Shown here one piece after another: positions 4,838-64,000 of a stretch of DNA of 64,000 bases; the stretch's first letter is position 1, and each line of letters starts with the position of its first letter. Below the pieces are notes generated by a model. It did not search any database and was not told where the DNA came from. It saw only the letters and a list, made by a program, of their open reading frames with translations. This DNA is from a virus. The stretch is from positions 2,382 to 66,381 of IMG/VR virus record IMGVR_UViG_3300033149_004564; one strand, 5' to 3'. Made by a program: the position numbers and the translations under genes.

Positions 4838-5163
4838 TCATCGGTTGTTTCCTCATCAGTGGGCGGGTCTTTAGTATATGTTGCTTCAAAAACATCCCTC
4901 TTGCAAGGATATAGTTCACCCTTAATCCCACGGATCAAAACATCTTTGCCGGGGTCATACTTATGCGTCCCCTCAAGCGTGGTAATTTCGAGGGGTACTG
5001 GTGGGGCGGCAAATTCAACTTGCACAGGTCGTTTCCAGCACCTAAACCACTCAGCGGATTCCACAGCCTCACGAATCTCAACCTCTTTTGCAGCCATGCA
5101 ATCGGAATAGCCATCACTCATTATTCTCTCCTTCGACGGGCTGGCCCTTGAGGTAAGCGTCAA
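4834..5163 (-). CDS. PGDYG-like phage protein
   Basis: 'ITTLEG...PGKDVLIRGIKGELYPCKRDVFEATY'. Confidence 0.7.
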   Translation of the reverse strand: MTLTSRASPSKERIMSDGYSDCMAAKEVEIREAVESAEWFRCWKRPVQVEFAAPPVPLEITTLEGTHKYDPGKDVLIRGIKGELYPCKRDVFEATYTKDPPTDEETTDE

Positions 5164-5344
5164 GTCGGCAGCCGGGAGCGTGGCCGCTTAAATTGCCATG
5201 AAAGCAGATAGGGCATCCGTCCCTTGCGCTCCACTCCAACTCCCGCAGCAGGGCGTTGGCCTCATCCCGTTCTTTCTTTGCCTTGGCAAACTCAGTGTGG
5301 AGTTTCGCAATTTCATAGCCCGTTTGAGTCATTTCCCCCCCCAC
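5114..5344 (-). CDS. small Zn-finger protein
   Basis: CPIC...H..GC. Confidence 0.55.
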   Translation of the reverse strand: MGGEMTQTGYEIAKLHTEFAKAKKERDEANALLRELEWSARDGCPICFHGNLSGHAPGCRLDAYLKGQPVEGENNE

Positions 5345-5682
5345 GCAAGTCTCTCTGTAAGCTTCTCGTTAATATCTTGCAAGTGCGCTACGTCCAGCGT
5401 AGTATTACAGGCCGGACACCAATACTCTCCAGGCTCAGCCACGTAACCCTTGTCAGCCTTCATCCAAGTAAACTCACCTTGATAACCACAAGCAGGACAC
5501 TTGGCGGTGAGAAAGTGCTGTAGACGCTTCTTTGTTTCGGCAAGCTCCTCCTTCATCGCGTACCACTGTTCACGAGTGGCCTTGAGCGTTCCAAGTGCGT
5601 TGCCCAATTCTTGCCCAAGCCCTTTGATCCGTTCCAACGCCTCCACCAGTTCACCCTCTGTTTGTTTATGATCCTGTGGCAT
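5329..5682 (-). CDS. coiled-coil plus Zn-ribbon protein
   Basis: heptad pattern, then CPACG...CPAC. Confidence 0.6.
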   Translation of the reverse strand: MPQDHKQTEGELVEALERIKGLGQELGNALGTLKATREQWYAMKEELAETKKRLQHFLTAKCPACGYQGEFTWMKADKGYVAEPGEYWCPACNTTLDVAHLQDINEKLTERLAWGGK

Positions 5683-5685
5683 TAC

Positions 5686-6006
5686 TCACCCTCCGGCTCT
5701 GTATTTGAACACCAATACCAACCAAACTGTATTGACCACAACGATTAGCACCCCACCAGCAAAACTGAACCATTGGTCAAGTGACGGATAATAGTATAGG
5801 TTCCACATTCCCCACGCCGTGAAAAAACATACTGGCAACCAGCTTACCCCCGCGACTACTTTGTCAATTAGGAGCCGCCTGACATTCAGCGTTAGTAAAG
5901 CCGCACCAACCAATTCAAAGCAACCGTTGATCAAGTCATTGTGCTGCACTATTCCTCCAATGCTCTCGCAATCTTCCTGTTTATCTCTTCCTGTGTTCCC
6001 ATCCAT
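5686..6006 (-). CDS. PQ-loop/SemiSWEET-like 3-TM membrane protein (true start probably near 5949)
   Basis: 'RLLIDKVVAGVSWLP..FFTAWGMWNLYYY'; three hydrophobic helices. Confidence 0.6.
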   Translation of the reverse strand: MDGNTGRDKQEDCESIGGIVQHNDLINGCFELVGAALLTLNVRRLLIDKVVAGVSWLPVCFFTAWGMWNLYYYPSLDQWFSFAGGVLIVVVNTVWLVLVFKYRAGG

Positions 6007-6290
6007 TTAGCAATCACTGCAAGACCCCGGTTGATTCGTATGACGTACAGCGTTAGCGTTGCAATGGCTCCTGTAAGAACGCCAACTATAGCGAGTTCCA
6101 TTTATTCCTCCGGCTTAAAGGGTATTTCTTGCTCCTACGGAACATCATCCCAGTCTAATGAATCAGGGCGCTTGTCTTCTACCAGTAGATTCCCTAACAA
6201 CGCAAAGAGCATTGGGGGAATTACAGTAATAACCAAACAGCCGAGGACTATCCATTCCGCAACCATGCGCAACATCCGCAATAAGAACAT

Positions 6291-6815
6291 TTATTCCTCC
6301 GGCTCAAAGGATATTTTGTAGCGGGTGAAGGTTTCCCAACAGGTATCTACAACAGCCCCAATGTCCAGTGTGTCTACCCGTACCAGCCGCCGACTCCCTG
6401 CGTATGTTAGTGATAAGGGGCAGGGCACTACTTTATAATCAACCACAGCCACCACATGCGCCCGCGCCAGCTTCGCCTCAAGGCTGTCGATACGGGCCGC
6501 ATCAGACATTATGGGAGTGGTGCTCTTGACCACCCCAAAAGTATAAGCCGTGCCCTTTTCAAGAACCACACTTTTAGAGTGTGTGGCGAGGTCATCGCGG
6601 ATATCCTCGCGGACATCCTCCACTATTCGTATCAACTCAAAGTCTTTTTCCATGAGATTGCGCCACAGCCAGGGGAACCCTTTGCGAATCGAGCCGTCAG
6701 GATAGTGTACAATTACATCATCACAGGCCGTATCTCTTATCACTATGACGCTATCCATCCGCGCCATTCCCGGCAACGCACACAGGAGCAGGGCTGCCAC
6801 GAGTAGTCTAATCAT
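6291..6815 (-). CDS. signal-peptide protein, paralog A
   Basis: MIRLLVAALLLCALPGMA; shares N- and C-terminal blocks with 7755-8333. Confidence 0.7.
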   Translation of the reverse strand: MIRLLVAALLLCALPGMARMDSVIVIRDTACDDVIVHYPDGSIRKGFPWLWRNLMEKDFELIRIVEDVREDIRDDLATHSKSVVLEKGTAYTFGVVKSTTPIMSDAARIDSLEAKLARAHVVAVVDYKVVPCPLSLTYAGSRRLVRVDTLDIGAVVDTCWETFTRYKISFEPEE

Positions 6816-7338
6816 TGGTTGCCTTCCTTTCGGCCAACCAGAGCAGGATGGCGATGTAGGCTTCGGGTTCGGTGCTGGCGGTCTTCTCAAACGGCTTACC
6901 CTTCTTGCAATAAAGAGTAGGGATTAAACTCACTTTGTGTTCTTTTAACGTGCCCTGTGTCTCGCTAACCCACTCATCATACTCATAGCGTAGTTTATAT
7001 CTTAAACCACACATCTCTCGCACCTTATCGCTGATTTGTTTCTGCCAATAAGGATTCCGATAATTACAATGCCTTGCTTCCACAAGGTCCATACCAGAAG
7101 TGCCAGATTTGACAAGGCCGCTAAGAAACTCGCTTCTACTTCCCTCTATTTCCCCCAGCGCCCTTGCTATCTCCTCGCTGTCAGCGTACCCTTGCCGTGT
7201 CGGTATAATGTCACACTCGCAATCCTCAAAATGACGGTGACACTTATCGCAGGTACATTCAATGCCCCCTGTCTTGCTGTCAGTCATCAGCTGCCTCCAA
7301 TGTCTCACATAGAGCAGGAATCGGGCTATCGGCTTCAC
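6808..7338 (-). CDS. hypothetical protein
   Basis: 176-aa ORF ending 'STEPEAYIAILLWL', a common phage C-terminal motif. Confidence 0.5.
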   Translation of the reverse strand: MKPIARFLLYVRHWRQLMTDSKTGGIECTCDKCHRHFEDCECDIIPTRQGYADSEEIARALGEIEGSRSEFLSGLVKSGTSGMDLVEARHCNYRNPYWQKQISDKVREMCGLRYKLRYEYDEWVSETQGTLKEHKVSLIPTLYCKKGKPFEKTASTEPEAYIAILLWLAERKATND

Positions 7339-7754
7339 CTACCAAATAAGCCCGAATCGCGCTTGGTATCTCTTCCAGAATTGTTGTTTTAGTTCTGATC
7401 TCTGTCGTGGCCAAGTACCGCTCACGCGCCGCAACAATCAACCGAGGAAGCCAGAAGTAAGGATCGAGAGTTGCACTATTTTTTCTATCAAAGGCTTTTG
7501 GATTACAATAATGATTCCTTTTTAGCTTCAACACCCTTGTGCACCGTTCGGCCTCAGCCTGCATTAGCTGTTTCATCTCCACACTCCTATCCAGCCCGGA
7601 TTACCAAAGCAAACCTCGCGCTTATATGTTTGCTGATAGCCACACTTGGTGCAGGTTCGTACTTGCCCCAACTCAGGATCATGCAGTGTAGGATACTTCC
7701 ACTTATGGTCACACCGAGCAGATGTTCCGGTAGTCCAGCTATGCGTTAGCCGTT

Positions 7755-8333
7755 TCATCTCACCTCTGGCTCAAAGGAGATTTCGTAGCGAGTAAAATAG
7801 TGCATCTCTCTTGTTGTATATTCAGTGCCCTCAATCGGAATCGACTCCCGTCCTTGCTGCATATATGCTCTGCGTGTTATTATTGCCATGCCAGAATCGG
7901 GTATTGCCACCACATGCGCCCGCTTCAGCACGGCCTCAAGGCTGTCAACCCTGTTCATCGTTTCATCGGCGGCTGCGAGGCGGGACGACACGCCTATCAT
8001 CCATCTTTGGAACACAGCAAACTGTGGGTCGTTATACCTTGCCTCTGGCAGCAAAGTTAAAAGTCTTGCCATTTGATCCTCAAGGCTATCGGTGCGGGCC
8101 TCAAGCTTGATAATTGTACTATCTACAACAGACATTTGCATAGGGGGCAGTAGCAAATCCCACCGCAGTGGCGCAGAACCCTCCTCTAACGAGATTCTCC
8201 GAACACGGGTAGATATTATCGAACTTATGGTATCGGGCCGGAAGCGATACCAAACCTCATGGTCATCCTGCGCCATTCCCGGCAGCGCACACAACAGCAG
8301 GGCCAATGTGGTTAGTATAATTAGCTGTTTCAT
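7755..8333 (-). CDS. signal-peptide protein, paralog B
   Basis: MKQLIILTTLALLLCALPGMA; 'DSLEAVLKRAHVVA'; ends FTRYEISFEPE. Confidence 0.7.
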   Translation of the reverse strand: MKQLIILTTLALLLCALPGMAQDDHEVWYRFRPDTISSIISTRVRRISLEEGSAPLRWDLLLPPMQMSVVDSTIIKLEARTDSLEDQMARLLTLLPEARYNDPQFAVFQRWMIGVSSRLAAADETMNRVDSLEAVLKRAHVVAIPDSGMAIITRRAYMQQGRESIPIEGTEYTTREMHYFTRYEISFEPEVR

Positions 8334-8461
8334 TTGTTCTTCCCCTTCTTGTCTCTCAGTTTCAGCGCACTCATAACATCTTCGTAAGGCATGTCGATAT
8401 ATATCCATTTACCATACAGATATATCATAGAACTGGTGCCCTTCATTGTGCTTTTGGCGGC

Positions 8462-8695
8462 CTACACAAACGACGGTTTAACGAATAGCGTTATCGTTCT
8501 GCCCTTGAGTTCTACAGGTCTATATTCAGCCTCAATATCTCTCATAATTTGGGCGGTGTTCCTGTTTTTATCCACAGGGAAAGATGTGGCAGTGGTCCGA
8601 AGCGTAGGCTTTGGCAGATGAATATAAGGCGGTGGCTGTTCTGTGGCGCACCCAACTAACAGGACAAAAAGCAAAATCAGCATTAAGTATCTCAT
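8462..8695 (-). CDS. small lipoprotein
   Basis: signal peptide II with lipobox LVGC. Confidence 0.6.
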   Translation of the reverse strand: MRYLMLILLFVLLVGCATEQPPPYIHLPKPTLRTTATSFPVDKNRNTAQIMRDIEAEYRPVELKGRTITLFVKPSFV

Positions 8696-9115
8696 GTTTT
8701 CAACCCCAGATAAATGGCAAATAGTCTAATCATTTTTTCATTTCCATTTCTATTAAATATTTATTTGTTGTTCCCGTTTCATAATTGTTACAGGAATTGA
8801 ACAAGATATAAAAATCAATATTATAAAAAATAATACTTTATTCATAATTGATAAACCCTATCTAAAATTTTTTATTATAATGAACAGTCAATAAAACAAA
8901 TCAATATGCAAATAAATAAAGCAATAAAAAGTATAATTTCTTTGCCAGTTATTCTACCCATTTGATTCTCTCGCTGAGAAAAGGTTTTAGAAATAACAAG
9001 ATAAAACTTAACAAATAAAAATATTATAATTACTGGCATAACTATCTGCATTCTAACACCAATAAACTCTATAGTTGATTCTAACATTATTTATCCTAAA
9101 TTAAAAAAAGTAAAA

Positions 9116-13270: not shown

Positions 13271-13347
13271 TGGTCGGGACGGCCAGATTTGAACTGGCGA
13301 CCACTCGCTTCCAAGGCGAGTGCGCTACCTGACTGCGCTACGTCCCA
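13271..13347 (-). tRNA. tRNA-Pro(TGG) with encoded CCA
   Basis: cloverleaf: acceptor TGGGACG/CGTCCCG, D stem GCGC/GCGC, anticodon arm CTCGC-CTTGGAA-GCGAG, T arm GCCAG-TTCAAAT-CTGGC, ends ACCA. Confidence 0.93.
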
Positions 13348-34580: not shown

Positions 34581-35036
34581 TCAGCAACAGTTATTTATAA
34601 ATATCAAAAAGTTTTCCCCCCTAAAATAAAGTACTATTGGTTTTTCTTTATCGTGTTTGAATCGACCATCAAAAGGAATTTGAAGTTTAAGCTTTGCAGA
34701 AGGAAATATTTTCTTTATAGATTCAAAAGTGCCACCTCGGTTTATTTCAAAATTATTACCATAACCTTTATCAATGTGCACAATCCCAGTAGTCTGTACA
34801 TTAAGTTGATTCCCTTTACTATCAATCGCAGCAAAATCAGTGCAATCTATAATAATAACTGTATCACGGTGATTTGTTATTTCAATATGTAAATACCCCG
34901 CAAATCTAAGAAGCTTTGTGATTCGATACTCAATGCCATCAACCGTTCTCGGTGCGTCTTTTGTCTTTTTACCATCAATTTTAATAGCAAAAACCAATGA
35001 CGGAAAAAGTAGCATAAGAAGAACCAAAGATTTCAT
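34581..35036 (-). CDS. exported protein
   Basis: signal peptide MKSLVLLMLLFPSLVFA. Confidence 0.6.
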   Translation of the reverse strand: MKSLVLLMLLFPSLVFAIKIDGKKTKDAPRTVDGIEYRITKLLRFAGYLHIEITNHRDTVIIIDCTDFAAIDSKGNQLNVQTTGIVHIDKGYGNNFEINRGGTFESIKKIFPSAKLKLQIPFDGRFKHDKEKPIVLYFRGENFLIFINNCC

Positions 35037-38036: not shown

Positions 38037-38065
38037 TTGACAGCAAAGAGATAATGCGTTATTAT
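38037..38065 (+). promoter_or_regulatory. tnpB promoter
   Basis: TTGACA-N17-TATTAT, implying a start at ATG 38072. Confidence 0.65.
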
Positions 38066-39187
38066 ACATATATGAAACGAACCATTTCCATAAAGTTAGA
38101 GACTACACAAGAGCAATCTCAAGCTCTTTCTAACTTGCAAGCCGAATATAACCGGACATGTAATCTGATTGTCCCGTTTGTCTGTGAAACTCGCTGCTGG
38201 AACCGCGTGGCCCTGCATCACATTGTTTATTATAAAATCAGAGCACAATCGAAACTTGGTTCTCAAATGGTTTGCATTGCAATAAAGGCCGTTGCAGATG
38301 CTTATAAAACATTGAAACCCAAAAGAACAGAAGATGTTCCTCCCATTTCTTTTAAAACAACTTCCAGTGTTCATTTTGATGCCCGCACGTTTTCCATTCA
38401 AGATGAAGCTCTTTCCCTTTATACGTTGTCCAGTCGCATTCGTGTTAAAATGATACTCGGAGATTTTCAGAGAAAATATTTTGATAATGGAACAGTAAAA
38501 GAAGCTGATCTTGTTTGTAAGCACAAAATTTGGTATTTTAATCTCGTTCTGGATTTGCCTGATACTCCTCTTAAAACCGGAAATGGCAGTGCTGTCGGAG
38601 TTGATCTTGGAGAGAACAACTTGGCCGCCATATCCACCGGAAAGCTTTTTGGTGGTGGTCAACTTCGACACGAACGTGATAAGCATCTTGCCCTTCGCCG
38701 CAGGCTTCAACGCAACGGCTCTCAAAGCGCAAAACAACTGCTTTGCAAAGTCTCTGGTCGAGAAGCCCGCCATGTTTCCCATGTTAACCACGAAGTAAGT
38801 AAAGCCATTATCACAGAAACTCTGCAATCGGGAAGCAACACGATTATACTGGAGAACCTGACCAATATCCGCAAACGCATTAAAGGAAGTAAAAGGATTC
38901 GTTCCCGCCTGCATCGCTGGGCATGGGCAGAACTTCAACGCTTTATTGAGTATAAAGCACAAGCTGCTGGTATTTGTGTTGAATATGTTAATCCTGCATA
39001 TACCAGTCAGACTTGTAGCATTTGTGGTTCTCTCGGTTCTCGTGTTAAACATCATTTTTCCTGCTCCTGTGGAAGCCTCGCGCACAGCGACTTGAACGCC
39101 AGTCGAAATATTGCGAAGCTTGCATCATTCTTTAATGGTGCAACGGGCGCTGTGGGCCGTCCGAATGTGGCAACCGTTTCTGGTTGA
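38054..39187 (+). CDS. tnpB: RNA-guided endonuclease TnpB
   Basis: RuvC 'GVDLG', 'ILENL', 'SDLNASRNI'; Zn finger CSIC...CSC. Confidence 0.95.
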   Translation: MRYYTYMKRTISIKLETTQEQSQALSNLQAEYNRTCNLIVPFVCETRCWNRVALHHIVYYKIRAQSKLGSQMVCIAIKAVADAYKTLKPKRTEDVPPISFKTTSSVHFDARTFSIQDEALSLYTLSSRIRVKMILGDFQRKYFDNGTVKEADLVCKHKIWYFNLVLDLPDTPLKTGNGSAVGVDLGENNLAAISTGKLFGGGQLRHERDKHLALRRRLQRNGSQSAKQLLCKVSGREARHVSHVNHEVSKAIITETLQSGSNTIILENLTNIRKRIKGSKRIRSRLHRWAWAELQRFIEYKAQAAGICVEYVNPAYTSQTCSICGSLGSRVKHHFSCSCGSLAHSDLNASRNIAKLASFFNGATGAVGRPNVATVSG

Positions 39188-45308: not shown

Positions 45309-45962
45309 ATGGCACAGAAACAAAATAATTTAACCAGAGTAGTTGATAAACTTTTTAAAGATTCAGAAGGCATTATTTGGAAACTTGCAAAACAATATAT
45401 AAAATATTTACCGGCGGAATCTGTAATGTGTGATGAAGATTTATTTATGGAGGGTATGGCAATCTATTGCTCATTACTTAATACATTTGATAAATCAAAG
45501 AAAGTAAAATTTACAACCTATTTATATTCTTGTGTTGCAAATAGATTTAAAACGATTATTGCACGAGAGACAACAAAATATAGTTTTTCATATAATGCGG
45601 TTCCAATCTCTGTGTTTGATAAACCAACTAATAACAAATTTCTATATAATGCACCAGAAGAGTCGGTACAAATTACACTTTGCCATATCATAAGTGACGA
45701 ACTTAGCTTTGAATCAAAAATGTTGTTAGCTAAAATATTGGAATTGAAAATCCCAGAAAGATTAGATAAATGCTGGGATGGTATTGAAACTATAGTTGAT
45801 GCACAGACAAAGAGAGTTCCTATTGCAGAGTGGATAAAAATTCTTTCCGTTTTAACTAATTCAAAAAATTCACAGATTTTAAAACTGAGACAAGAATTAA
45901 TTGCTATCACGAAAGGAAAGCCCATAAATAAAATACAAGTGAATGCTCCCTTGTTGCATTAG
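45309..45962 (+). CDS. sigma-factor-like protein (region 2)
   Basis: 'IWKLAKQY...EDLFMEG...FDKSKKVKFTTYLY..VANR'. Confidence 0.7.
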   Translation: MAQKQNNLTRVVDKLFKDSEGIIWKLAKQYIKYLPAESVMCDEDLFMEGMAIYCSLLNTFDKSKKVKFTTYLYSCVANRFKTIIARETTKYSFSYNAVPISVFDKPTNNKFLYNAPEESVQITLCHIISDELSFESKMLLAKILELKIPERLDKCWDGIETIVDAQTKRVPIAEWIKILSVLTNSKNSQILKLRQELIAITKGKPINKIQVNAPLLH

Positions 45963-47157
45963 GCTTCTAAGGATTAGAACCTAAACTCTGCATTCCCAGA
46001 GTTAGAATATTAATTGAGGCATTATGATCTCTATCAAGGATAAAATTACAAAATGGACAAGTAAAGACACGCTCAGAAAGTTTAAGCTTGTGTCTTTGTC
46101 CACACTTGGAGCATGTTTGGCTTGTGTATGCAGGATTGACTTTAATTACTTTTCTACCAGCCTCTTCCGCTTTGTAGGAAAGCAAGTCAACAAACATTCG
46201 CCAAGCAGCATCTCCAATACTTTTGTTGATGCCCCTAAAATTACCATTTTGCATTTGATTAATATTAATATCTTCAACAACTATTATTCCAAAATGATTA
46301 ACAATCTTTCTTGCTATCTTGTGAGTGAAATTATGCCGTCTATTGGAAATTCTTTCATGAATATATGCAATCACTTTTCTGGCTTTGTTTCTTTCCTTAT
46401 TTTGTTTTTTAAGTTTAGAAAATTTTCTTTGTACCTTAGCAAGTTGTTTTTCCTCCTGTCTAAAAAATCGTGGGTTTTTAATTCTAACCCCGTTGGAAAG
46501 TGCAGCAAATGTTTTAAGACCAACATCTATACCTATTGCTTTGTTTGATTTGCTTATTAATTTTGGACTAACAACACAGGAAAAAGTTATGAACCATTTT
46601 CCTGTAGCAGTTTTACGAATGGTGCATGTTTTAATTTTACCTTCTATTTGTCTATATAATTTAATTTTAACTCTACCAATTTTAGAAAGTTGAATAACTT
46701 GTTTATCAATTAATAATTTAAATCCTTTTTGTGGATAAGTAAAAGAGTTATACCTAAATTTATTTTTAAATCTGGGGAATCCGGGCTTTTCTCCAGATTT
46801 AATTCTACGAAAGAAAGATTTAAAAGCAAAATCTAATCGAGCAGCGGTATTTTGTAATATCTGACTATATATAGTAGAAAGAGCTTGATGATCTTGTTTT
46901 AGTTGTTTAAAAGAATTGCACTGATCAAAATAGGAAATAGATTTTTGTTCTTGTTTCCAAACATTTTTACGTTGTTCAAGTAGGTAGTTATACAACCAAC
47001 AACATCTACTCAGAGTTTTATTAAGTAGGGTGGTTTGTCTTTTGCTTGGGTAGATTCGATATTTAAAAGTTTTGTTCATAGTTTAAGTAATAATAACCTT
47101 TTGCTTAAAAGTCAAGAAAATGCTTCAATTCATCTTTTGGGCTTGTCCCCTTTTTGT
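45939..47157 (-). mobile_element. IS200/IS605-family element with TnpB only; end hairpins eroded (left boundary approximate)
   Basis: right end AAGCC...GGGAGCATTCAC; left end AAGGGGACAAGCCC...GATGAATTG; TTGACT promoter; no tnpA. Confidence 0.7.
45967..47079 (-). CDS. tnpB: RNA-guided endonuclease TnpB (IS605 OrfB)
   Basis: 'KTFKYRIYP', 'PGFPRFK', 'GIDVG', 'VVEDI', 'TSQTCSKCG', 'DRDHNASINI'. Confidence 0.96.
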   Translation of the reverse strand: MNKTFKYRIYPSKRQTTLLNKTLSRCCWLYNYLLEQRKNVWKQEQKSISYFDQCNSFKQLKQDHQALSTIYSQILQNTAARLDFAFKSFFRRIKSGEKPGFPRFKNKFRYNSFTYPQKGFKLLIDKQVIQLSKIGRVKIKLYRQIEGKIKTCTIRKTATGKWFITFSCVVSPKLISKSNKAIGIDVGLKTFAALSNGVRIKNPRFFRQEEKQLAKVQRKFSKLKKQNKERNKARKVIAYIHERISNRRHNFTHKIARKIVNHFGIIVVEDININQMQNGNFRGINKSIGDAAWRMFVDLLSYKAEEAGRKVIKVNPAYTSQTCSKCGQRHKLKLSERVFTCPFCNFILDRDHNASINILTLGMQSLGSNP

Positions 47158-54008: not shown

Positions 54009-54069
54009 GTGGTGCATAAAACACTCGTTCATGCACCACAACAGGGCTTGTTGTGTTTTCATGCACCAC
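54009..54069. repeat. three GTGGTGCAT boxes (one inverted pair plus one direct copy)
   Basis: 54009-54017, 54031-54039, 54061-54069. Confidence 0.75.
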
Positions 54070-54512
54070 TACCTTTCAATCAGGCCGTGCTCCCTGAGAG
54101 CAGCCAGAAGTTGATTGAACCTAATTACAACATCTTCCGGGTTTACCACGTCTGATATTGCTGATTGGCGTTTATTAAGAACCCTTTGATAATTAATAAA
54201 CACACCACCCCCAAAAGCAAGAGACAGATTGCCCTTATTGTCTAAGCTTGTCTTGGGTTTAAGATTTTCATATAAAGCCAAGCCGTTAGGGGCGTACAGG
54301 GCGTTGATATTGCCAGCCCCATTATAAACGGAGAGAATACCATCCCCCTCTTTATTTTGGCTCAAATATGTTCTTGGTCCACTCTCATGACGAAAAACAA
54401 GTCCGTTTTGTACAACAGTCATCCCCGTATCTGGCACAATCTCTGTCGGCACGGCTTTTTCGCAACTAATCAAAAACAACAAACTAAAAAATAACACAAA
54501 TAAGATTTTCAT
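54069..54512 (-). CDS. lipoprotein with tail-fibre-type C-terminal motif
   Basis: lipobox LISC; C-terminus 'FNQLLAALREHGLI' resembles the fibre's 'LNDLLARLRTHGLI'. Confidence 0.7.
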   Translation of the reverse strand: MKILFVLFFSLLFLISCEKAVPTEIVPDTGMTVVQNGLVFRHESGPRTYLSQNKEGDGILSVYNGAGNINALYAPNGLALYENLKPKTSLDNKGNLSLAFGGGVFINYQRVLNKRQSAISDVVNPEDVVIRFNQLLAALREHGLIER

Positions 54513-54529: not shown

Positions 54530-56608
54530 TTAAGTATCAATTAATCCGTGCGTCCTGAGCCTTGCAAGTAGATCATTCAGTCGCGCCATTGTACTCGCTG
54601 GATCCGTAGCATCGGCAACCGCCGCACCCCGGGTTCCGAGAACCTTATCAGTATTTGTATCATAAAGACCAGTAGTATATTTAAGGGCTATCGCAGTTAC
54701 CGAAGTAAGATTTGACATTTCACGAGTACTATCACAAATTTCTGTTCCACCTATTCGTAAAGTGCCAGTCACTATATCGAAATGGCCCGTGGGCACTTTT
54801 ACAACATCTGATGATCCTAAAACCTTGAGAATCAAATCATTATTTGCTTGAATTCTAAGATCATAATTGCCAGCGGTATATGTACTATCAGGAACAATAA
54901 CACCACAACCCTCATAAGCGGCTGTAGTATGGATATAACGACCTATTGCTATTCCACTCCCATTTAAATCCATACGTCCACTAATAGATGAAGTCGGAAG
55001 ACCCAACACTGTTACCCCCGGATGAACGCTATAGCCAACATCCCCGGTTCCCGAAGTAATGGTGAGTGCTGCAAAGTGGGTCGTAACCGCCGTATTCCAC
55101 GCCTCAATGCCTGCATATCCGTAACTATCTTCTCCGATTGTTACCTTACGGGCCGCATCCCCAACCTGAATAATCAGCTTATCCGCATCTTTATCCCATT
55201 GCATATACTTGGTGGATGAACCAATTACTACATCCCCAACATCAGCACCACCAACCATCACTTTGAAAACATCCGCCCCCACATTGTCGATTACTTGTAT
55301 TCCCGTATTGACATCCGGGAATATCCGCACCCTGGCCCCGCTGGCTGCGCTGTTGTACGCCCCGCCGGTAGCGGTCAGTTTTGTATTAGCCACAGTATTA
55401 TCAGTAGCGCCAGCATTGGCAGGGGCGTTATTAGTGTTCAAAACATTTATATCACTTTCAGCATTACTTGCTGCTGCCCAACCAGAAGAAAAAGTACAAG
55501 AACCACTAATCGCTATTTTATTAGCTGCAATGTTTAATGTTCCACCATCCTCGTTGCTGGCGTTAATTGAAGCAATAACATTAGTATCTTGAACTGGAAT
55601 AAAAGCAAGGGCAGAAAGAATTACTGTACCAGTATAAATACTTCCACCATCAATTTGTGTTGTATCAGAACCGTGCGCCCAACCAGCAACAGAGGTTCCT
55701 AACAAACCATTTACATATGTTGTATCATTTGCTGTATTGCTTCCAGTAACATCTGCTCCACTTTCAGCAGGAGCGTGGGTTGTGTTCAAAACATCTATAT
55801 CAGATTCAGCATTAGATGCTGCTGCCCAACCAGAGCTAAAGGTTGTAGTACCAGCAATAGCAATTCTGTCAGCGGTAATATTAAGCCCCTCAGAACTTGC
55901 GTTAATCGTAGCAACTACATCATTTACTCCAGTTGCAGAATACAGTGGAGTAAAATTAAGAGTGCCAACATCAAGACTTCCAACTTGAATGTGTGCAGCA
56001 GTAAGTGTATTGGCTAAAACTTCATTTCCTGTTACTACATTTGCTGCTAATATATCTGTTGTAATTATAGTTTTAACGCCACCAGCGACACCACCAAAAG
56101 CTTGATATTCTGCACTCTTTCCTGTATCTCCGTTTGGAGCTACAACAGCTATAAGAACTTTACCGACACCATTAGCATTAGCACTATTCGTAGTTGTCTG
56201 TAGTGTGGTTGTGCTGACAGAATAGTCAAAATATACATATGTTACTGTTGCAATATCTCCAGTATTACCAGAAAGTATAGAATGCGTTGTGCCTTTGCTA
56301 AATCTTATAATACCACCTGTCCAAGCAACTGTATTATAATCTACAGAGCTAAACGTAGCATCAAAGCTCCACCCTTGTAAATCAAGCGGAACACCACCAC
56401 CACCGCCTCCGAACGTGTCAACGTACTTTTTATTCACCAGAGCATAATCTTCAACGGGATACGCAGATGGGCCGATAGGAAATTCATCAAAAGTTTTAAC
56501 ACCTTCAATAGTTTGTGCTATATTTGCAGTCAAAACGCATTTTGCGTTTAGATTGACCGTGGATATTTCATCTGAATTATGCCATTGGCTCATTATAAAG
56601 CCCCACAA
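54530..56608 (-). CDS. tail fibre or fibre-like virion protein
   Basis: G/T/A/S-rich; 'QTIEGVKTF', 'VNKKYVD'; internal duplicated 'FSSGWAAASNAESDI.VLNT..APA' unit. Confidence 0.78.
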   Translation of the reverse strand: MWGFIMSQWHNSDEISTVNLNAKCVLTANIAQTIEGVKTFDEFPIGPSAYPVEDYALVNKKYVDTFGGGGGGVPLDLQGWSFDATFSSVDYNTVAWTGGIIRFSKGTTHSILSGNTGDIATVTYVYFDYSVSTTTLQTTTNSANANGVGKVLIAVVAPNGDTGKSAEYQAFGGVAGGVKTIITTDILAANVVTGNEVLANTLTAAHIQVGSLDVGTLNFTPLYSATGVNDVVATINASSEGLNITADRIAIAGTTTFSSGWAAASNAESDIDVLNTTHAPAESGADVTGSNTANDTTYVNGLLGTSVAGWAHGSDTTQIDGGSIYTGTVILSALAFIPVQDTNVIASINASNEDGGTLNIAANKIAISGSCTFSSGWAAASNAESDINVLNTNNAPANAGATDNTVANTKLTATGGAYNSAASGARVRIFPDVNTGIQVIDNVGADVFKVMVGGADVGDVVIGSSTKYMQWDKDADKLIIQVGDAARKVTIGEDSYGYAGIEAWNTAVTTHFAALTITSGTGDVGYSVHPGVTVLGLPTSSISGRMDLNGSGIAIGRYIHTTAAYEGCGVIVPDSTYTAGNYDLRIQANNDLILKVLGSSDVVKVPTGHFDIVTGTLRIGGTEICDSTREMSNLTSVTAIALKYTTGLYDTNTDKVLGTRGAAVADATDPASTMARLNDLLARLRTHGLIDT

Positions 56609-56653: not shown

Positions 56654-57829
56654 TTAGTACTCAGAATACAGGTTTCCTGAACGCGAATTTTGAAACATTG
56701 CCAAGACTGGGCCGTCCTTAATCGGCGTAACATCTTTCAACTGCGTTGCAGAATCAGTCCAGCCAGAAGGAATACTTGCAACAGGACAGCGAAAAGCTTT
56801 GCCTTCTATCATATGATTAGCCAATCCTGGACCGCCCACGTTGGGTGTCGGCACATCAAAATAGTCTATCTTGGGCAGAAACAATCCAAATTGATAATAT
56901 TTACCTGTAGAACCTATCTGTGGGCCTATGTATTCAATTGAGACATACTCTGCATTACCTGAGTCTTTTTTGTCGAGCCACGTGTCTGCCTCGTAGCGAG
57001 GAAGCTCAAAACTAAACGTACACTGTATAAAATCATTTCTCATCGGTTCAAGAATGAGCTGACTATCAGCAGTTCTACTATCAACAGCAAGTAAGTTTTG
57101 AATAACAAGCTCCCAACGAGTAACATAAATAACAGTTGTTTCTACTGTTACTGCTAATTGCGCTGGTTTAATAATCAAATCATCATAGCTGTTTTGTAGG
57201 TTTGTTTTAAGTGTCCACGCAGCAGAATTATAATCATTACGAGCCTCAGTTTGTGCAACTATATCTAAAGAGGCTTGTATTGACTCTGTATCACCAGTAA
57301 GAGTAAGCTGATTTATCATAGCATCTGTGAGCCTATAATCTGAAACTTGCCTTGAAAGCCCAAGAGTGAAAGCACGAACTTTCTTGTCAGCGGCAGACCA
57401 TGTGCCACCACCCGCACCTGAAGTCATTCTGTCCTCACCAGCAGTCCAGCCGTATCGTTCTGCTGTATCATCACACTCATAGACATGCTTGTAAACACCA
57501 GTAGCATAATTATGGGGAGAACCACCCTGATCATCATCGTTTGGGTTCTCATACCCAAGAGCAAGAGCGATTAAATCTTCTATACCACCCTCATAAAACA
57601 GTGGTAACACAATATTACCTGAAACTGTATGCCCAGTTTGATATGAGACTTGTCTACCATACGAACCATCAATAATATCTGGTATATTTACTGCACGTTC
57701 TCCGCTAATCTCAGCAGATATAAAAGGAACCTGATCGTTTGCACCAAGCGTTTCTGCATCACCAAAAGTTGATTGCGTCTCGCCCTTTTGGAATGACATT
57801 TTGGACAGGGCACCATTAAAATCAGCCAT
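56654..57829 (-). CDS. major tail tube protein, paralog 2
   Basis: MADFNG..K...GE...FG; 'PNVGGPG'; similar to 57845-58789. Confidence 0.72.
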   Translation of the reverse strand: MADFNGALSKMSFQKGETQSTFGDAETLGANDQVPFISAEISGERAVNIPDIIDGSYGRQVSYQTGHTVSGNIVLPLFYEGGIEDLIALALGYENPNDDDQGGSPHNYATGVYKHVYECDDTAERYGWTAGEDRMTSGAGGGTWSAADKKVRAFTLGLSRQVSDYRLTDAMINQLTLTGDTESIQASLDIVAQTEARNDYNSAAWTLKTNLQNSYDDLIIKPAQLAVTVETTVIYVTRWELVIQNLLAVDSRTADSQLILEPMRNDFIQCTFSFELPRYEADTWLDKKDSGNAEYVSIEYIGPQIGSTGKYYQFGLFLPKIDYFDVPTPNVGGPGLANHMIEGKAFRCPVASIPSGWTDSATQLKDVTPIKDGPVLAMFQNSRSGNLYSEY

Positions 57830-57844
57830 AATAACCCCAAAGTT

Positions 57845-58789
57845 TTATGTTTCGATTGTAAGTCGAACTTCTTTAGTAATTGCCGATAAATTAGTATTAC
57901 GAGCAGCATTTAGATATGCAGTAAGCTCTATCGGCACTCCAGCAGGACCGGGCCCGCTGATAGGAACATTTGGTATCTGGGTTATTTTAAGAACTGGCAA
58001 TTGAATTAAAGCATTATTACTACCAGTACCGGGGATAGTAAAATCCATTTGCAATAGAGTTTCAGCAGCTTCCCACGTTGCATACTGATCTGTATCATAT
58101 CTTGCAATTTCACCAGTTACTTTTATTTCCCTAAAACCAGACTTCAAATGCTCTAATGGCAAATCAGAATTTGAACGATAAGCACCATCATCAAGATTAT
58201 GGTTAATCTCGATTGAAGCGTTTGTCATATAAATTTGATCATCATCATCAAGTGCTGCATCTTGTATAGCCAATCTTATCTTTGTTGAATCAAATGCCCA
58301 CGGCTCAGAACTGGTCAATGAAATACCAGCAAAAGCTGTAGCAACACGATCTGAATCTTTAGACTTGAAATTAAAAGTACCTATCCAGTTTTCACCGGCA
58401 GAACCAGCAAGGGTGAAACTATTTATTTTTGCTCCAAGTGCTTGAAAACGACTAACCGTTTTTTCAATCCAAAGAGTCAGTGAAAGGTGTTCGGTCTCTA
58501 CAAGATCGTAAACACCACTTGATTCAGAACCAAACGCAGCCTCAAAAAGCAAATCATTGTTATCATAGTCCATTTCAATTTCTAAATCACCAGCAACAGT
58601 TTTGTTACCTCTTCTATCTTCTCTCTGTGCAGCAGTACCATCAAGGATTGGAGATGCTACCCTTGCAATCTCTGGACTAATACCTTCAGATAGCAAGCGT
58701 AACATTTCAGTTGCAGTAGCAACAGTACCATAAGCAGAAGTCTCTTCACCAATCCCAAGTTTTCCTAATACACCGTTAAACGTGCTCAC
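57845..58789 (-). CDS. major tail tube protein, paralog 1
   Basis: 'GIGEETSAYGT', 'GAKINSFTL', 'PISGPG'; follows the tail terminator. Confidence 0.78.
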   Translation of the reverse strand: MSTFNGVLGKLGIGEETSAYGTVATATEMLRLLSEGISPEIARVASPILDGTAAQREDRRGNKTVAGDLEIEMDYDNNDLLFEAAFGSESSGVYDLVETEHLSLTLWIEKTVSRFQALGAKINSFTLAGSAGENWIGTFNFKSKDSDRVATAFAGISLTSSEPWAFDSTKIRLAIQDAALDDDDQIYMTNASIEINHNLDDGAYRSNSDLPLEHLKSGFREIKVTGEIARYDTDQYATWEAAETLLQMDFTIPGTGSNNALIQLPVLKITQIPNVPISGPGPAGVPIELTAYLNAARNTNLSAITKEVRLTIET

Positions 58790-59294: not shown

Positions 59295-59855
59295 TTATAT
59301 CCTCTTTTTCATATGCTTTTTAAAATAACCACCAAATTTTTTATACAATTTATTCAGCTTTGCAGTATCACCAACAATTGGTTCTAAAAATGGTCTACGA
59401 GTCATACCAGCAACAGAACTTTTAAATGACAAACTTTGAGTAAATTCTTTTCCATATATTTCTTCTTTTATTGTACCGCGTCCAGAAGCTCCTCTACGAC
59501 CTGTGCCAAATTCAAGATATTTATCATATGGCCCATCTTCTAATTCTTTTCTAAAACTACCAAGCAACCCTACAACTTTACCAGCTATTCTAACTACACG
59601 ACCAATTATATTACCTTTCAAATTGCCTGCTACAACAGAAGGAAAACCAAAGGGTTTAGAACCACCAGCAGTAATTTTTCCTTTACTATCTTTTCTGACT
59701 GGTACTTTAGACATTTCACGCTTAATTGTATTAGCAGAAGAAAGTACAAGTTGGTTCATTGCTCTTGCTTCTGCTGTTTTCAAGTTTTTGCCATAAAGAA
59801 GTTTAAATTTTCTTCTAACTTCAGCAAGATTTTTTATGTGTAACATAGTAGCCAT
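59295..59855 (-). CDS. HK97 gp10-like neck/tail completion protein
   Basis: 'GNLKGNI', 'Y.KYLEFGT', 'M..RPFLEP'. Confidence 0.8.
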   Translation of the reverse strand: MATMLHIKNLAEVRRKFKLLYGKNLKTAEARAMNQLVLSSANTIKREMSKVPVRKDSKGKITAGGSKPFGFPSVVAGNLKGNIIGRVVRIAGKVVGLLGSFRKELEDGPYDKYLEFGTGRRGASGRGTIKEEIYGKEFTQSLSFKSSVAGMTRRPFLEPIVGDTAKLNKLYKKFGGYFKKHMKKRI

Positions 59856-60778
59856 TAAACTACCACAATTCTTTTATATCTCTGGAGAACCGCTTTTGTA
59901 TCAGCAGGTAAATCTTTAACAACATAAGTTGTAGTTGCAGAATCAACTTGGGTTGATCGTCTTGTTTCTTGTATAATACCAATACGCTTACCGCCAATAA
60001 ACGATCTTAAATATTCAATTGCAGTAAGTTTGATTCCTTCTAATCGTATATCCTCCGGTATATCAGTCCACCCATAAGTATATGTTATTTTAATACTTCG
60101 TCTGCCCGACCGCCAAGAGCCTGAATTATAAAGTACAATCCCACTATCTGGCTCAAATGTATAGTTATCACTATCTACAAGAGAAACAGCATCCCAATCC
60201 CAATTTATATCATAGTAAATACTATCTATTTCAGATATAGGATAATTCTTTAGAAGTAATTCACTATCACTTGGCCCATCATAATACTCGGTAATCTCTT
60301 GCACATCTAATTTTCTTTTCATATACCTTTCAAATGAAACTGTAACAGCCTCAAGAATTAATTGAAGTTGGTCATTTAAACGGTTGGTTTTAAACTGATT
60401 GTTAGTAGTGCCAACAAAGAATAATTTACTTACTCCAAGAACATCGGTAGCAGGAACATCAGTAAGGGTTAAAACAACACCATCTGTAGCTGCATAAAGA
60501 TATGTAAACCACCCACTAAGTGCATCAATATAATCTGCCATCTCACCAAATGTGTCCCATGCTGTTCTACCCGCATTACTTGGATCATAATCAATAGTAT
60601 AAACAGCAGCATCAACTCCACCAACTATTGTCAAAACTACTTTATTTCCACCTATTTGTACTGTTGCTGATGTTGCATCAGTAGAAGTACAATAGATAGA
60701 GAAAGCAACAGTAGCTGGTTCAATATTTAAATAGTTTCTTAAATCCTCAAAAGAAGCAACAAGCCGATTAACTGACAT
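59855..60778 (-). CDS. head-tail adaptor (gp6-like) with inserted domain
   Basis: 'FEDLRNYLNI'...'LEAVTVSFERYMKR', 'ITYTYGW..IPEDI', 'VLQRYKR'. Confidence 0.75.
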   Translation of the reverse strand: MSVNRLVASFEDLRNYLNIEPATVAFSIYCTSTDATSATVQIGGNKVVLTIVGGVDAAVYTIDYDPSNAGRTAWDTFGEMADYIDALSGWFTYLYAATDGVVLTLTDVPATDVLGVSKLFFVGTTNNQFKTNRLNDQLQLILEAVTVSFERYMKRKLDVQEITEYYDGPSDSELLLKNYPISEIDSIYYDINWDWDAVSLVDSDNYTFEPDSGIVLYNSGSWRSGRRSIKITYTYGWTDIPEDIRLEGIKLTAIEYLRSFIGGKRIGIIQETRRSTQVDSATTTYVVKDLPADTKAVLQRYKRIVVV

Positions 60779-60783
60779 AATTA

Positions 60784-61098
60784 TTAACCCCCAGTATCAC
60801 TTGCTAATTTTGTGATTAAAATTGATGTTAAAGTATCAAGTTGCTCTTTTATACTTTTCAGTTGTTCTTTCCCCTCACTTGCTTTTTCTTCTAATCGAAC
60901 AACCTTAGAATCAATTCCTACTTGCATTAATTCAAAATTTGCTGTGTATCGTAAATTATAAATAGTTAGTGTTAAAAAAATCATAATTAATCCATAAAGC
61001 ACTTGCATAGATCGTTGTGAACAAAATTTAGGATAATATTCACGATCAAGATACAATTTAAATTTCGCTTGGTTTGGACTTAAATCAGAATCTTTCAT
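60784..61098 (-). CDS. TM plus coiled-coil protein (holin/spanin-like)
   Basis: one TM followed by heptads. Confidence 0.45.
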   Translation of the reverse strand: MKDSDLSPNQAKFKLYLDREYYPKFCSQRSMQVLYGLIMIFLTLTIYNLRYTANFELMQVGIDSKVVRLEEKASEGKEQLKSIKEQLDTLTSILITKLASDTGG

Positions 61099-61427
61099 TA
61101 TATATCTCCACCTAATAAAATAGGAATCAATGTAGTATCACTTTTTGTGTTTGAATTATTTAAATCTTCTTTTATATTTATAATATCTAAGCTGTCCAAT
61201 AAAACAATTATTTTATTAATTTCTTTTTGTATATCTTCAATAGCTTGTTCATTTTGATCGTATTTAATAATTAAACTATTAACACTATGTAAGGTTTTTG
61301 TAGCGTTTAATTTTGTAGTATCTAAAACAAGTTTAGTAACTATCTCTTTATTAGTTTTCATTGTATCTGGAGCAGCAAATATTACAACTGCAACAAATAT
61401 ACAAGATATCAATAATAACTTATACAT
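61098..61427 (-). CDS. signal-peptide coiled-coil protein
   Basis: MYKLLLISCIFVAVVIFA; four D-S/T-x sequons. Confidence 0.6.
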   Translation of the reverse strand: MYKLLLISCIFVAVVIFAAPDTMKTNKEIVTKLVLDTTKLNATKTLHSVNSLIIKYDQNEQAIEDIQKEINKIIVLLDSLDIINIKEDLNNSNTKSDTTLIPILLGGDI

Positions 61428-61466
61428 TTATAAATCTCCTATTTTAATTTAATACTCTGAGTCTCT

Positions 61467-63048
61467 TCACTTTCTTGTGTTTACTGTTCGCCCATCAACT
61501 ATCAATGCGCCACCAACGGCAGGGGTCTCTATTGTTTTCCACGCGCCGAAGCTCTTACCTCCGCAGCGTGGCTCCCTGTTTCCGTGATAGTGGTCGTATC
61601 GGCATCATTCCCCAGTGTCATATACTCAAAACCCCAACTGGTCATATTCGCACCGCCAACGGAATCAGCATTGGCGTGGAGAATCACCGTTACCATATCG
61701 AGATTGAGCGAATCAGCGGTCGTTATTCCCGGCTGATATTTTTCTTCGTAATAAACTACAATATAAGGTGCCTCACCTGCGCCCAATGACCAAATTGATC
61801 TCCAGTCCAGTCCTGACGGCTCTACATTCTTATGATCTTGCCGATCCATCATAAAAAGCTTCAAACTATCACCGAGAGCATTCTGTATCCCCGTCTTGCC
61901 ATCAGCCGTAAAAAGACGGCTATAAAACACTCCCTCAGAAGAACCAGAATTAACTATAAAAGGCTCGGTATATTTTACTACATTGGGGTACGCAACATCC
62001 CCCGCCGCATGGCCCGTAAACTCTGTCAACCAGACCGAATCAATAGAACCGCCCGTAAGCGTGGCCTCAAGTATATCCACTGTATCATTTCCTACGGGGT
62101 TGGTTGTTAGCCACACATTCAAATATGCAGAATCAACCACCCCTCCCTGTATCGCTGACAAATCAAAAACTAAACCGGCGCGTGCCATATAAAAATAACC
62201 CACAGCTTCATACGTACCTATATTGGCGGAAGTCGTACTAAACGCATACCCCATCGTATCAGCCCTTGTGGTTGCATACGTTGGGGTTTCATGCGCTCTA
62301 AATGCACCAGCGGTTGTTAAAGAGGTATCATTAATAACTGAGGGATCAAACCAAACAGAGTCACCCGCTACAATGGTGCCCAGCATTACGATCAGGCTAT
62401 CGGCGGTAAACTGCGCTGTAAAGTCAACGGCCTCCTTCTTCTTATTCCACGCCTTTAGCTTACCGAGCCGCATTCGTTCAACGCCTTCAATGCTCTTGAT
62501 AACCGCTCCATCTGACAGCACAGTCTTTGCCAGCGCACCGATAAGGTTGTACTTCCACGCCAACCGGGTAGGAGATTTGCTTGTTAGAATCAGGGTCTCT
62601 TTCACCCCGCTCGAAGTAATGTCAAACTCAACATCAATCCCAGCAGTGGAAGAATCGGGAATGAACTCAACGGACGTTCCCAGCCTTTCATATTTATACT
62701 TGCCCGGCCGAGTCTTGCTGTAAGTAACCTCGAACCGTCCGGCGTTGACTTTCGTGTCGTAGTCGCCTGCTTTTGAGGCTCCCAGAATTGAAGTCTCAGT
62801 GAACCGATAAGGAACCATCGTACCCGCAGAATCCCAGTTGATCGGGGGGGAACCAGATAAGCCATAATGAATCGCCCGCTGCCAATAGAATCGACCTCAT
62901 ACGTCACGCTGTTTATCGTACCTTTGCTGACCCGCCGGATAGTGTTAATCGGCTGAACCGGCTCTTTGCTCTTGGTTACTTTCAGATCCCCAGCCAGCAA
63001 CAGGGAAGGCAATAGCAAGGCCAGCAATGTCAATATGCTTTTCCGCAT
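61467..63048 (-). pseudogene. exported DNRLRE-like plus FN3-like protein broken by two apparent frameshifts (ORFs 62602-63069 and 61529-62818)
   Basis: signal peptide MRKSILTLLALLLPSLLLA; frame change at the G7 tract 62844-62850; 'RAGLVFDLSAI...VDSAYL'; FN3-type end 'GKSFGAWKTIETP' in a shifted frame. Confidence 0.65.
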
Positions 63049-63050
63049 GG

Positions 63051-64000
63051 TCAATCCTCCCATAGCCACGGGTGCGGGTCAATTTCAATATCAATCGTGG
63101 TTGAATCCTCTGTCGTCCATCCGTAGTTCTGCATCTTCTTTGTATTGCTTCGCAGCGAATCCGTGAGGCTCACCCCGCCAGCGGTAACTGAATCGCTCAC
63201 TATCTTGAGACCCGCCGTTGGAAAGTTGTACCACGATATCGTTAACAGCCCTGTTTTCTGGAAGCGGCCTGTCGCGCCCTTATTCACAGAATCAACGGCA
63301 AAGCCTCGCGCCACAATCGAGGTTGAAGTATCGGCCCGATACCACCTGTCATCCGATTTCAGGTAGTAGGCCCGGCCCGGACTTAAAGTATCCCCGGCCT
63401 CGCCGTAATGGTATTTCAGGCTGTCAACCTCAGTTTCAAGATTAGCTATTAGGCCCTGATTCACAACCACAGAATCCATAGTACTATCTATACCAGATTC
63501 TAAGTCAGCTATTAATCCCTGATTCACCACTACAGTATCTACAATAGAATCTAATCCAGTTTGCAAGCTATCAATACCTGCCTCAGCAATATTTAATCAG
63601 CTATGTTTAATGCGGTATTAATAGAATCAGTTGCAGATTGTAAACTATCTATACCAGATTCAGCTATATTTACATCTTCTAATACAGAATCAAGTCCAGT
63701 TTGTAATGAATCAATATCAGCTTCTGCTGCGTTCAAGTCCGTGCCTATAGAATCTGTAGCAGATTGTAAACTATCTATACCAGCTTCTGCTATATTTACA
63801 TCAGTTTGTAAAGTAGAAATTAGGCCCTGATTCACAACCACAGTATCCATAGTAGAATCAAGTCCAGTTTGAAGCTTTGTTATATTACTTGTAAGTGTAC
63901 CAGTTAAACTCCATACCTCATCTAAAGAATCCTCAATTTCAATATAAACATCAGCAAATGTTGGTAATGCCGCAATGTCAGAAACATTATCTGACACATT
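63051..64000 (-). CDS. coiled-coil repeat fibre with capsid-decoration-like C-terminal domain; starts beyond the window; frameshift near 63595
   Basis: repeats NIAEAGIDSLQ / LDS..D.VVVNQGLI in both ORF pieces; C-terminal 'GEAGDTL..G.AYYLKSD..WY.AD'. Confidence 0.7.

Follow-up and report, generated by a model that had tools for sequence, protein, structure and literature searches.

Why do proteins encoded in the last 3 kilobases (kb) of a phage contig carry so many copies of the tripeptide D-(S/T)-(A/I/L/V/M/T), which the accessible part of PMC8550257 gives as the sequon of the general O-glycosylation system of Bacteroidota? The contig is the 66,381-base linear IMG/VR virus record IMGVR_UViG_3300033149_004564 (CheckV completeness estimate ~49%), and the window is the whole stretch of 64,000 nucleotides (nt) that was analyzed, i.e. 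bases 2382–66381 of this record. Since window position 64000 is the contig end and the minus strand carries nearly all genes, the genes in question are the first of the late operon. The first-pass annotation, made from the sequence alone, had noted the density of the sequon in four open reading frames (ORFs) and proposed host-dependent glycosylation of the phage proteins. The results presented below lend good support to both export (or membrane anchoring) of the encoded proteins and selection for the sequon at the protein level. That three of the genes, designated A, B and C, form an exported, sequon-selected accessory cassette, whose products are glycosylated by the host, is the interpretation towards which we lean.

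The gene models for the four ORFs had to be revised, since the disrupted frames of two genes (A and B) had been missed. The features of the region are listed below (window positions; lengths in amino acids, aa).

63593–64000, minus strand: upstream piece of gene A, coiled-coil and fibre-like, with 21-aa (63-nt) repeats and 9 sequons; its 5′ end is cut by the contig end
63583–63611, minus strand: imperfect, frame-shifting 14-nt tandem duplication in gene A (2.1 copies, 86% matches)
63051–63596 (listed ORF 63051–63566), minus strand: downstream piece of gene A, with the last repeats and a 120-aa non-repeat beta-rich C-terminal domain; 10 sequons, 5 of them in the domain
62851–63048, minus strand: signal peptide and N-terminal region of gene B, with GGAGG nine bases upstream of the start at 63048
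62844–62850, minus strand: C7 homopolymer at which gene B changes frame; one extra C would join the signal-peptide frame to the body frame
61529–62843 (listed ORF 61529–62818, 429 aa), minus strand: body of gene B, with predicted beta-sandwich domains, among them a jelly roll resembling CBM96 and a C-terminal domain resembling Fn3; 10 sequons
61470–61580, minus strand: out-of-frame remnant of the gene B C-terminus, 56% identical to residues 529–560 of the relative P0003 (E = 2e-7)
61098–61427, minus strand: gene C (109 aa), an N-terminal signal/anchor and then a coiled coil; the 4 sequons are all located past the hydrophobic segment
60784–61098, minus strand: gene D (104 aa), with a transmembrane segment in the middle and a coiled coil after it; 1 sequon (not enriched) and a weak XhlA match (E = 0.024)

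ORFs 63593–64000 and 63051–63566 are one gene, split by the 14-nt duplication: the former ends ..LNIAD-stop, the following frame begins LNIAEAGIDSLQ, and a single copy of the 14-nt unit would put both in one frame. Gene B is disrupted in a similar manner. Its N-terminal ORF overlaps the 429-aa ORF in another frame and the two frames meet at the C7 run. Residues 31–60 are 70% identical to residues 33–62 of P0003 (E = 2e-11), and in the closest relatives, P0002 (557 aa) and P0003 (562 aa), the signal peptide, the junction (..P-I/V-x-W-D-S-A-G..) and the body are all in one frame. The last ~30 residues of these relatives are encoded in a third frame in the window, which has also lost an internal stretch.

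Sequons, defined as D-[ST]-[AILMTV], were counted in the 98 non-overlapping ORFs of at least 60 aa and compared with 1000 composition-preserving shuffles of each protein; signal peptides and anchors were called with a crude hydrophobicity heuristic. ORFs 61098–61427, 61529–62818, 63051–63566 and 63593–64000 contain 4 sequons in 109 aa, 10 in 429, 10 in 171 and 9 in 135, respectively, compared to shuffle expectations of 0.69, 2.29, 1.38 and 2.02 (p = 0.007, 0.001, 0.001 and 0.001). In the remaining 94 of the 98 ORFs the density never exceeds 2.01 sequons per 100 aa. The control proteins contain 4 in 852 aa (PolA), 4 in 692, 7 in 914 and 2 in 391 (tail tube), and the tail and neck proteins are at expectation. 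All of the hand counts on which the original observation was based (four ORFs and four controls) were reproduced exactly, and the comparison with shuffles that had been suggested as a check upheld the enrichment in each of the four ORFs. The 63-nt repeat units of gene A each carry sequons, so that the counts for this gene are not independent; enrichment nevertheless persisted outside the repeats, the non-repeat C-terminal domain containing 5 sequons versus 0.85 expected (p = 0.0015).

The bias is specific for all three positions of the motif. D[ST]h (where h is A, I, L, M, T or V) reached z scores of 4.2–8.1 in the four ORFs, while the control motifs (D[ST]-non-h, E/N/G[ST]h, the reversed motif and D[AG]h) gave values from −1.8 to +1.6. 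Residue X of D[ST]X belongs to the A/I/L/M/T/V set in 42 of 48 cases in the seven exported pieces (1276 aa), compared to 48 of 103 in the 42 ORFs without an export signal (12,924 aa; Fisher p = 1e-6); the residues of the set make up 45% of the composition. The corresponding sequon densities are 3.29 and 0.37 per 100 aa. A pure composition effect was rejected on the basis of the shuffles and the motif controls. The third position is led by L, V, T and I, and the Ser:Thr ratio at sequons is 2:1. The sequon serines are encoded by both TCN (TCT, TCA, TCG, TCC) and AGY (AGT, AGC) codons, which indicates that selection acts on the protein and not on the DNA; a DNA-level motif was rejected for this reason.

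The enrichment is associated with export signals. The eight window ORFs with an N-terminal signal or anchor carry 13 sequons versus 3.1 expected, and the other 90 carry 85 versus 53.6, with 29 of the 85 falling in the pieces of genes A and B. The signal peptides that had been proposed at the starts at 63048 and 61427 were both recognized by the heuristic.

Further exported proteins of this kind are encoded at a distance from the cassette, in a second GC-rich island.

7755–8333, minus strand: exported sequon-enriched protein, with a signal peptide ending ..MA/Q; 4 sequons versus 0.68 expected
6291–6815, minus strand: paralogue of the former, with a near-identical signal peptide; 4 sequons versus 0.92 expected

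These two genes have DNA segments in common that are 85–91% identical.

These properties resemble those of known Bacteroidota substrates. According to the accessible text of PMC12871550, the motif is essentially required, E in place of D is not tolerated in B. fragilis, the third residue follows the order L, I, V, T, A, S, M, and modification is confined to non-cytoplasmic proteins, whose motif enrichment is found mainly in Bacteroidota. The window proteins carry the same tripeptide with the same exclusions (no E for D; a hydrophobic residue or Thr in the third position), and the tripeptide is confined to proteins with predicted export signals; Ser is more frequent than Thr, and L, V, I and T are the leading residues in position 3. 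They differ from these substrates in being phage-encoded, in their density (3.3 versus a background of 0.37 per 100 aa), in the Shine-Dalgarno (SD)-type sites of their genome and in having enriched relatives in metagenome-assembled genomes (MAGs) labelled Latescibacterota and Dehalococcoidia. In a literature search, no description was found of phage proteins serving as substrates for the Bacteroidota O-glycosylation system, and the word “phage” does not occur in the accessible text of the review PMC12871550.

The relationship between export and sequons was examined in the gene B family. A profile search of 1.84 billion representatives gave 1123 matches at E≤1e-3, of which the best 151 were scored. 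Within this set, the 113 proteins with a hydrophobic N-terminus had a median z of 4.9 (pooled, 1499 sequons versus 482 expected) and the 38 without one a median z of 0.2. The raw association between export and enrichment, with no correction for relatedness, was significant (Mann-Whitney p = 9e-7). In the signal-peptide clade to which the window protein belongs all 33 of 33 members are enriched (z 3.4–11.8), and some contain no D[ST]-non-h at all (sequon to non-h counts of e.g. 18:0 and 16:0). The long-form clade (600–1600 aa, with N-terminal anchors) is mostly enriched (z 3–9). The clade with hydrophilic N-termini has z≤2, bar one exception, and several of its members contain 0 sequons. Export is thus close to necessary, but not sufficient, for enrichment, which fits a lineage-specific periplasmic process. 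Export signals may be hidden in the family statistics, because the N-terminal classification is crude and some gene starts are called wrongly. An example was observed in L003, a 61-kb IMG/VR contig of a temperate siphovirus, where the stored protein P0082 (11564–15292) starts 20 codons past the likely true start and the longer ORF opens with a membrane anchor.

In L003, enrichment is confined to the N-anchored family member, with 30 sequons versus 8.9 expected. Its gene closes the tail module, located after the tape measure and two large tail proteins and beside the integrase region; the neighbouring tail proteins (718, 971 and 617 aa) are at expectation (z≤0.3).

Alignment of 29 members of the window protein's clade revealed considerable turnover, with 405 sequons distributed over 94 columns, 52 of them singletons. 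At the ten most conserved sequon columns, the cytoplasmic-type relatives carry the sequon in 0–2 of 13 cases, often keeping D-x-L with I replacing S. Since homologous columns lack the motif in these relatives, the fold does not need it, and a fold requirement was rejected as the cause of the motif.

The relatives of gene A show the same tendency. P0285, P0286 and P0287, which are longer proteins, all start with signal peptides and contain 12, 15 and 10 sequons, respectively, versus 2.1–2.9 expected. Exported relatives in related phages, whose examination had been recommended, therefore share the bias in both families (33/33 in the gene B clade and 3/3 for gene A). Distant gene A relatives in contigs L006–L008 show no sequon enrichment.

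The probable nature of the gene B product was examined with a model of the relative P0003, not of the window protein itself, predicted with AlphaFold from an alignment of 29 relatives. The model is all-beta and multi-domain (predicted local distance difference test score, pLDDT, 82.1). Its central jelly roll matches the chondroitin-sulfate-binding carbohydrate-binding module (CBM) 8wab_A (probability 1.00, TM score by target 0.55, root-mean-square deviation 5.7 over 203 columns), and its best viral structure neighbours in BFVD are phage proteins annotated as CBM96 or Fn3; the Atlas neighbours of the family are CBM96/DNRLRE clusters. Judged on this model, the predicted fold is a beta-jelly roll like that of solved CBMs. 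In the accessible part of PMC9971899, CBM96 is described as an alginate-binding module. The predicted structural likeness of the P0003 jelly roll to 8wab_A and to phage CBM96 proteins contrasts with the sequence models, which are below cut-off or give no match: NF033679 scored 22.5 bits (cut-off 34) on P0003 and did not match the window protein, a PF24517 search of the record gave no match, no family matched gene B above threshold, and a PDB sequence search with the gene B family profile returned 0 matches.

Taken as a whole, we infer, by reasoning from sequence, that the cassette proteins are glycosylated. The last 3 kb of the contig would constitute a cassette of four genes whose products leave the cytoplasm: a putative fibre with coiled-coil repeats of 21 residues and, at its end, a small beta-rich domain (A), a protein with a Sec signal peptide followed by several predicted beta-sandwich domains, one CBM96-like and one Fn3-like (B), and two small, probably membrane-anchored coiled-coil proteins (C and D). 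After Sec export, a Bacteroidota-type general O-glycosylation system in the host periplasm would add glycans at the sequons, and these could stabilize or disguise the proteins at the envelope. As the host system would perform the glycosylation, a phage glycosyltransferase would not be needed; in agreement with the original claim that none is encoded here, GT2, GT1/GT4 and Wzy_C-type genes were not found in the 66-kb record (~49% complete). The cassette may represent an accessory module that is mobile and acts at the host envelope, e.g. in glycan binding or receptor masking, rather than virion parts assembled in the cytoplasm. Such a module fits the placement of the gene B relative elsewhere in L003 and the GC-rich island in the present phage as well as a virion part does. 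The initial proposal of host glycosylation is accordingly retained with respect to export, the motif-specific bias at the protein level and its occurrence in relatives, whereas virion membership and the promoter argument found no support.

A possible precedent is provided by P. gingivalis phages, which, according to the accessible parts of PMC10367356 and PMC5837995, encode signal-peptide proteins obeying the Bacteroidetes Q-rule, and which may thus exemplify phage proteins adapted to host export rules. In both cases phage genes of unknown function with export signals appear to be adapted to a Sec-related feature specific for the host phylum, and a Q follows the likely cleavage site in the 7755–8333 protein, P0286 and P0287. 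By eye, however, gene B (..AG/D) and gene C (..AA/P) do not fit the rule, and the gene B clade mostly has G, D, E or T after ..AG, with A/G-Q in ~6 of 33 members. The string “glycosylat” is absent from the accessible text of PMC10367356.

If the proposed interpretation is correct, phages exploit general O-glycosylation of the host for their own exported proteins, and the sequon bias would offer a simple sequence-based means of predicting the hosts of uncultured phages. It would also define a large uncharacterized family of phage carbohydrate-binding proteins to test, open a possible route to glycan-coated phage components, and imply that the D-S/T-h system, or a look-alike, occurs in SD-using hosts, which would widen its known range.

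Several observations weigh against this interpretation. Within the gene B family, the association between export and enrichment lies between clades: a test of independent pairs (FastTree, 151 proteins) yielded 12 pairs, of which 2.7 differed in the same direction, 1.0 in the opposite direction and 8.3 not at all (p ~0.6). A clade of ~430-aa proteins with clear signal peptides is mostly unenriched (20 sequons over 16 proteins, an apparent depletion on which no claim is based), and 24 of the 113 N-terminally hydrophobic members have z<1, some of them with textbook signal peptides. A signal-peptide lipoprotein in L003 contains 0 sequons (0.9 expected), and the N-anchored distant gene A relative in L006 has 1 versus 1.9 expected. 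In the window, no enrichment was found in the signal/anchor ORFs 34581–35036 (1 sequon versus 0.38) and 54069–54512, 8462–8695, 1429–1743 and 8875–9087 (0 each), all five of which are small, with fewer than 0.4 sequons expected in each. The export of gene A is assigned by homology to P0285–P0287, its own N-terminus not being covered by the contig. In genes A and B, three frame lesions were found within ~2.1 kb, so that the cassette would be either in decay in this genome or the product of a local assembly error, with intact versions in relatives.

The identity of the host raises a further difficulty. Classical Bacteroidia rarely use SD sequences, and SD-like sites precede 25 of 52 starts in the window, compared to 12% of random sites, which speaks against such a host. 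For the two named enriched members of the gene B family, the source MAGs bear the labels Latescibacterota (a phylum of the FCB group) and Dehalococcoidia, not Bacteroidota; binning of phage contigs into MAGs is unreliable. SD use had already been noted in the first-pass annotation as a sign of a non-Bacteroidota host, and this argument holds; the accompanying argument from TTGACA/TATAAT promoters fails, as sigma-70-like promoters are at chance level in the window (70 found versus 64.7±8.7 expected). The Bacteroidota-type element TAnnTTTG is likewise not above chance in the window. The search for relatives did not lead to a host: the 391-aa and 314-aa Phage_tube_2 proteins have no relatives among cultured phages, gene B has none in the viral_contigs or genome_contigs collections, and PolA reaches a best identity of only ~23% within the cultured phage collection.

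Three other explanations were considered, each of which we regard as improbable to a similar degree. According to the first, the tripeptide bias is real but reflects some other constraint on the exported proteins of one lineage, such as another modification, a periplasmic folding or turn preference, or coiled-coil repeats. Most gene A sequons do lie in the 21-aa repeats, where D-S-hydrophobic fits a heptad pattern, and ~6 of the 14 sequons per gene B clade protein occupy conserved columns and could be inherited structure; the non-significant independent-pairs test and the MAG labels outside Bacteroidota point in the same direction. The specificity at three positions, however, equals that of the published sequon (no E for D and no non-hydrophobic third residue, as far as the accessible text goes), the motif is missing from the homologous columns of relatives with the same fold, and non-repeat domains are enriched as well. 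Moreover, the sequons in rare columns alone (4.1 per protein) exceed the whole chance expectation (~2.0–5.1) in most members.

A second explanation, similarly doubtful, is that the cassette is a fossil, recently acquired from a phage of a glycosylating host, non-functional here and uninformative about the host and biology of the present phage. It is based in part on the base composition of the region.

61501–63500: GC-rich island (GC 0.43–0.52, versus 0.24–0.35 in the flanks), spanning gene B and the C-terminal domain of gene A

The raised GC content (~0.50, versus 0.25–0.35 in the flanks) indicates that gene B forms an island together with the end domain of gene A, and the three lesions fall within 2.1 kb while the long core genes of the phage (852, 914, 734 and 692 aa) are intact. 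The second GC-rich island holds the other two enriched signal-peptide proteins, and low-GC signal-peptide ORFs elsewhere are unenriched. On the other hand, enrichment extends to low-GC DNA, namely to gene C (GC 0.24–0.26; 4 sequons versus 0.7 expected) and to the repeat part of gene A (GC 0.34–0.35; 9 versus 2.0). The island genes also have SD sites like the rest of the phage, and the lesions could be assembly errors or population variants.

The third explanation, which is the reading given in the first-pass annotation and in our estimate no more probable than the preceding two, is that A and B are virion fibre or decoration proteins, matured and host-glycosylated in the periplasm and joining the particle at lysis, which would give it a host-made glycan coat. 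The cassette is situated between head genes that lie off the contig and the head-tail adaptor, and the gene B relative in L003, by following the tape measure and two large tail proteins, occupies the usual site of a receptor-binding protein. The N-terminal region of cytoplasmic-type family members weakly matches gp41 of Bacillus phage Wes44 (E = 1e-3), a “virion structural protein” encoded directly after the tape measure, and Fn3 and CBM96 phage proteins are found among the BFVD neighbours of the P0003 model. The upstream piece of gene A matches phrog_19577 “minor head protein” (E = 1.4e-5) and DUF6468 (26.2 bits, cut-off 26.9), both matches being of coiled-coil type only, and the end domain of P0287 matches Phage_cement_2 (PF09956) with 22.5 bits, below the cut-off of 24; P0285 matches BppL_N with 22.3 bits. 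The combination of a coiled-coil stalk and a small beta-rich end domain, encoded between head and neck genes, makes gene A similar to phage cement/decoration proteins and head fibres. The phi29-type head fibre offers a comparison in this respect. All of these virion-type matches are, however, below curated cut-offs or of coiled-coil type, and a PF09956 search of the record itself gave no match at E≤1. The virion-type domains claimed for these genes in the first-pass annotation thus come down to sub-threshold or coiled-coil matches and gene position. An AlphaFold model of gene A had a pLDDT of 35.8, too low for use. Furthermore, signal peptides are present in the gene A relatives but absent from decoration proteins that are assembled in the cytoplasm, and the position of the gene B family differs between phages, with a GC-rich island in the present one. 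To our knowledge, no tailed phage assembles exported proteins onto its virions, and a literature search found no report of this.

The least probable proposal is the most far-reaching one, in which a phage fibre/carbohydrate-binding family of more than 1,000 members would be matured in the periplasm, densely host-O-glycosylated at D-S/T-h and added to capsids or tails at lysis, producing virions with a host-made glycan coat and no need of a phage glycosyltransferase; were it true, sequon density in exported phage proteins would mark hosts with the system, including SD-using lineages outside classical Bacteroidia.

Genes C and D were also considered as a two-component spanin, but the family scans revealed no lipoprotein, holin or endolysin family next to them.

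Downstream of the cassette, the late operon encodes a head-tail adaptor (59855–60778; phrog_442), a Neck1-like protein, two Phage_tube_2 proteins, a tape measure protein (PhageMin_Tail) and large tail proteins. The Phage_tube_2 genes form a tandem pair of tail-tube paralogues on the minus strand (56654–57829 and 57845–58789; E = 1e-9 and 1e-33). In the first-pass annotation, the first of the two had been named as the tail tube. The 692-aa protein encoded at 54530–56608 (minus strand), which had been described as a tail fibre, matches phrog_20838 “head fiber protein” with its last 33 residues (E = 4e-5).

The second GC-rich island (GC ~0.49, in a phage of ~0.33) extends over window positions ~3600–8400 and contains many short overlapping ORFs. 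A protein encoded at 2089–2784 (minus strand), which appears sigma-like by eye, has 3 sequons versus 0.45 expected, though it is without an export signal. A sigma-factor-like protein matching phrog_351 (E = 1e-9) is encoded at 45309–45962 (plus strand).

Many starts in the window are preceded by G-run ribosome-binding sites (GGGG or GGGGG, not GGAGG). In the related metagenome contig L002, the starts at 3207, 3636, 4598 and 4819 share AGGGGGAC 3–4 bases upstream. The G-run sites may reflect an unusual anti-SD sequence in the host lineage.

Two TnpB-type genes, with OrfB_IS605 and a Cas12f1-like TNB domain, are located at 38054–39187 (plus strand) and 45967–47079 (minus strand). The latter has thousands of metagenome relatives at ~60–72% identity. 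The best named relatives of TnpB are from MAGs labelled Curtissbacteria and Omnitrophota (~62% identity), together with a viral metagenome, and are not decisive for the host. The sole RNA gene detected with ARAGORN and Rfam is a tRNA-Pro(TGG) at 13271–13347 (minus strand).

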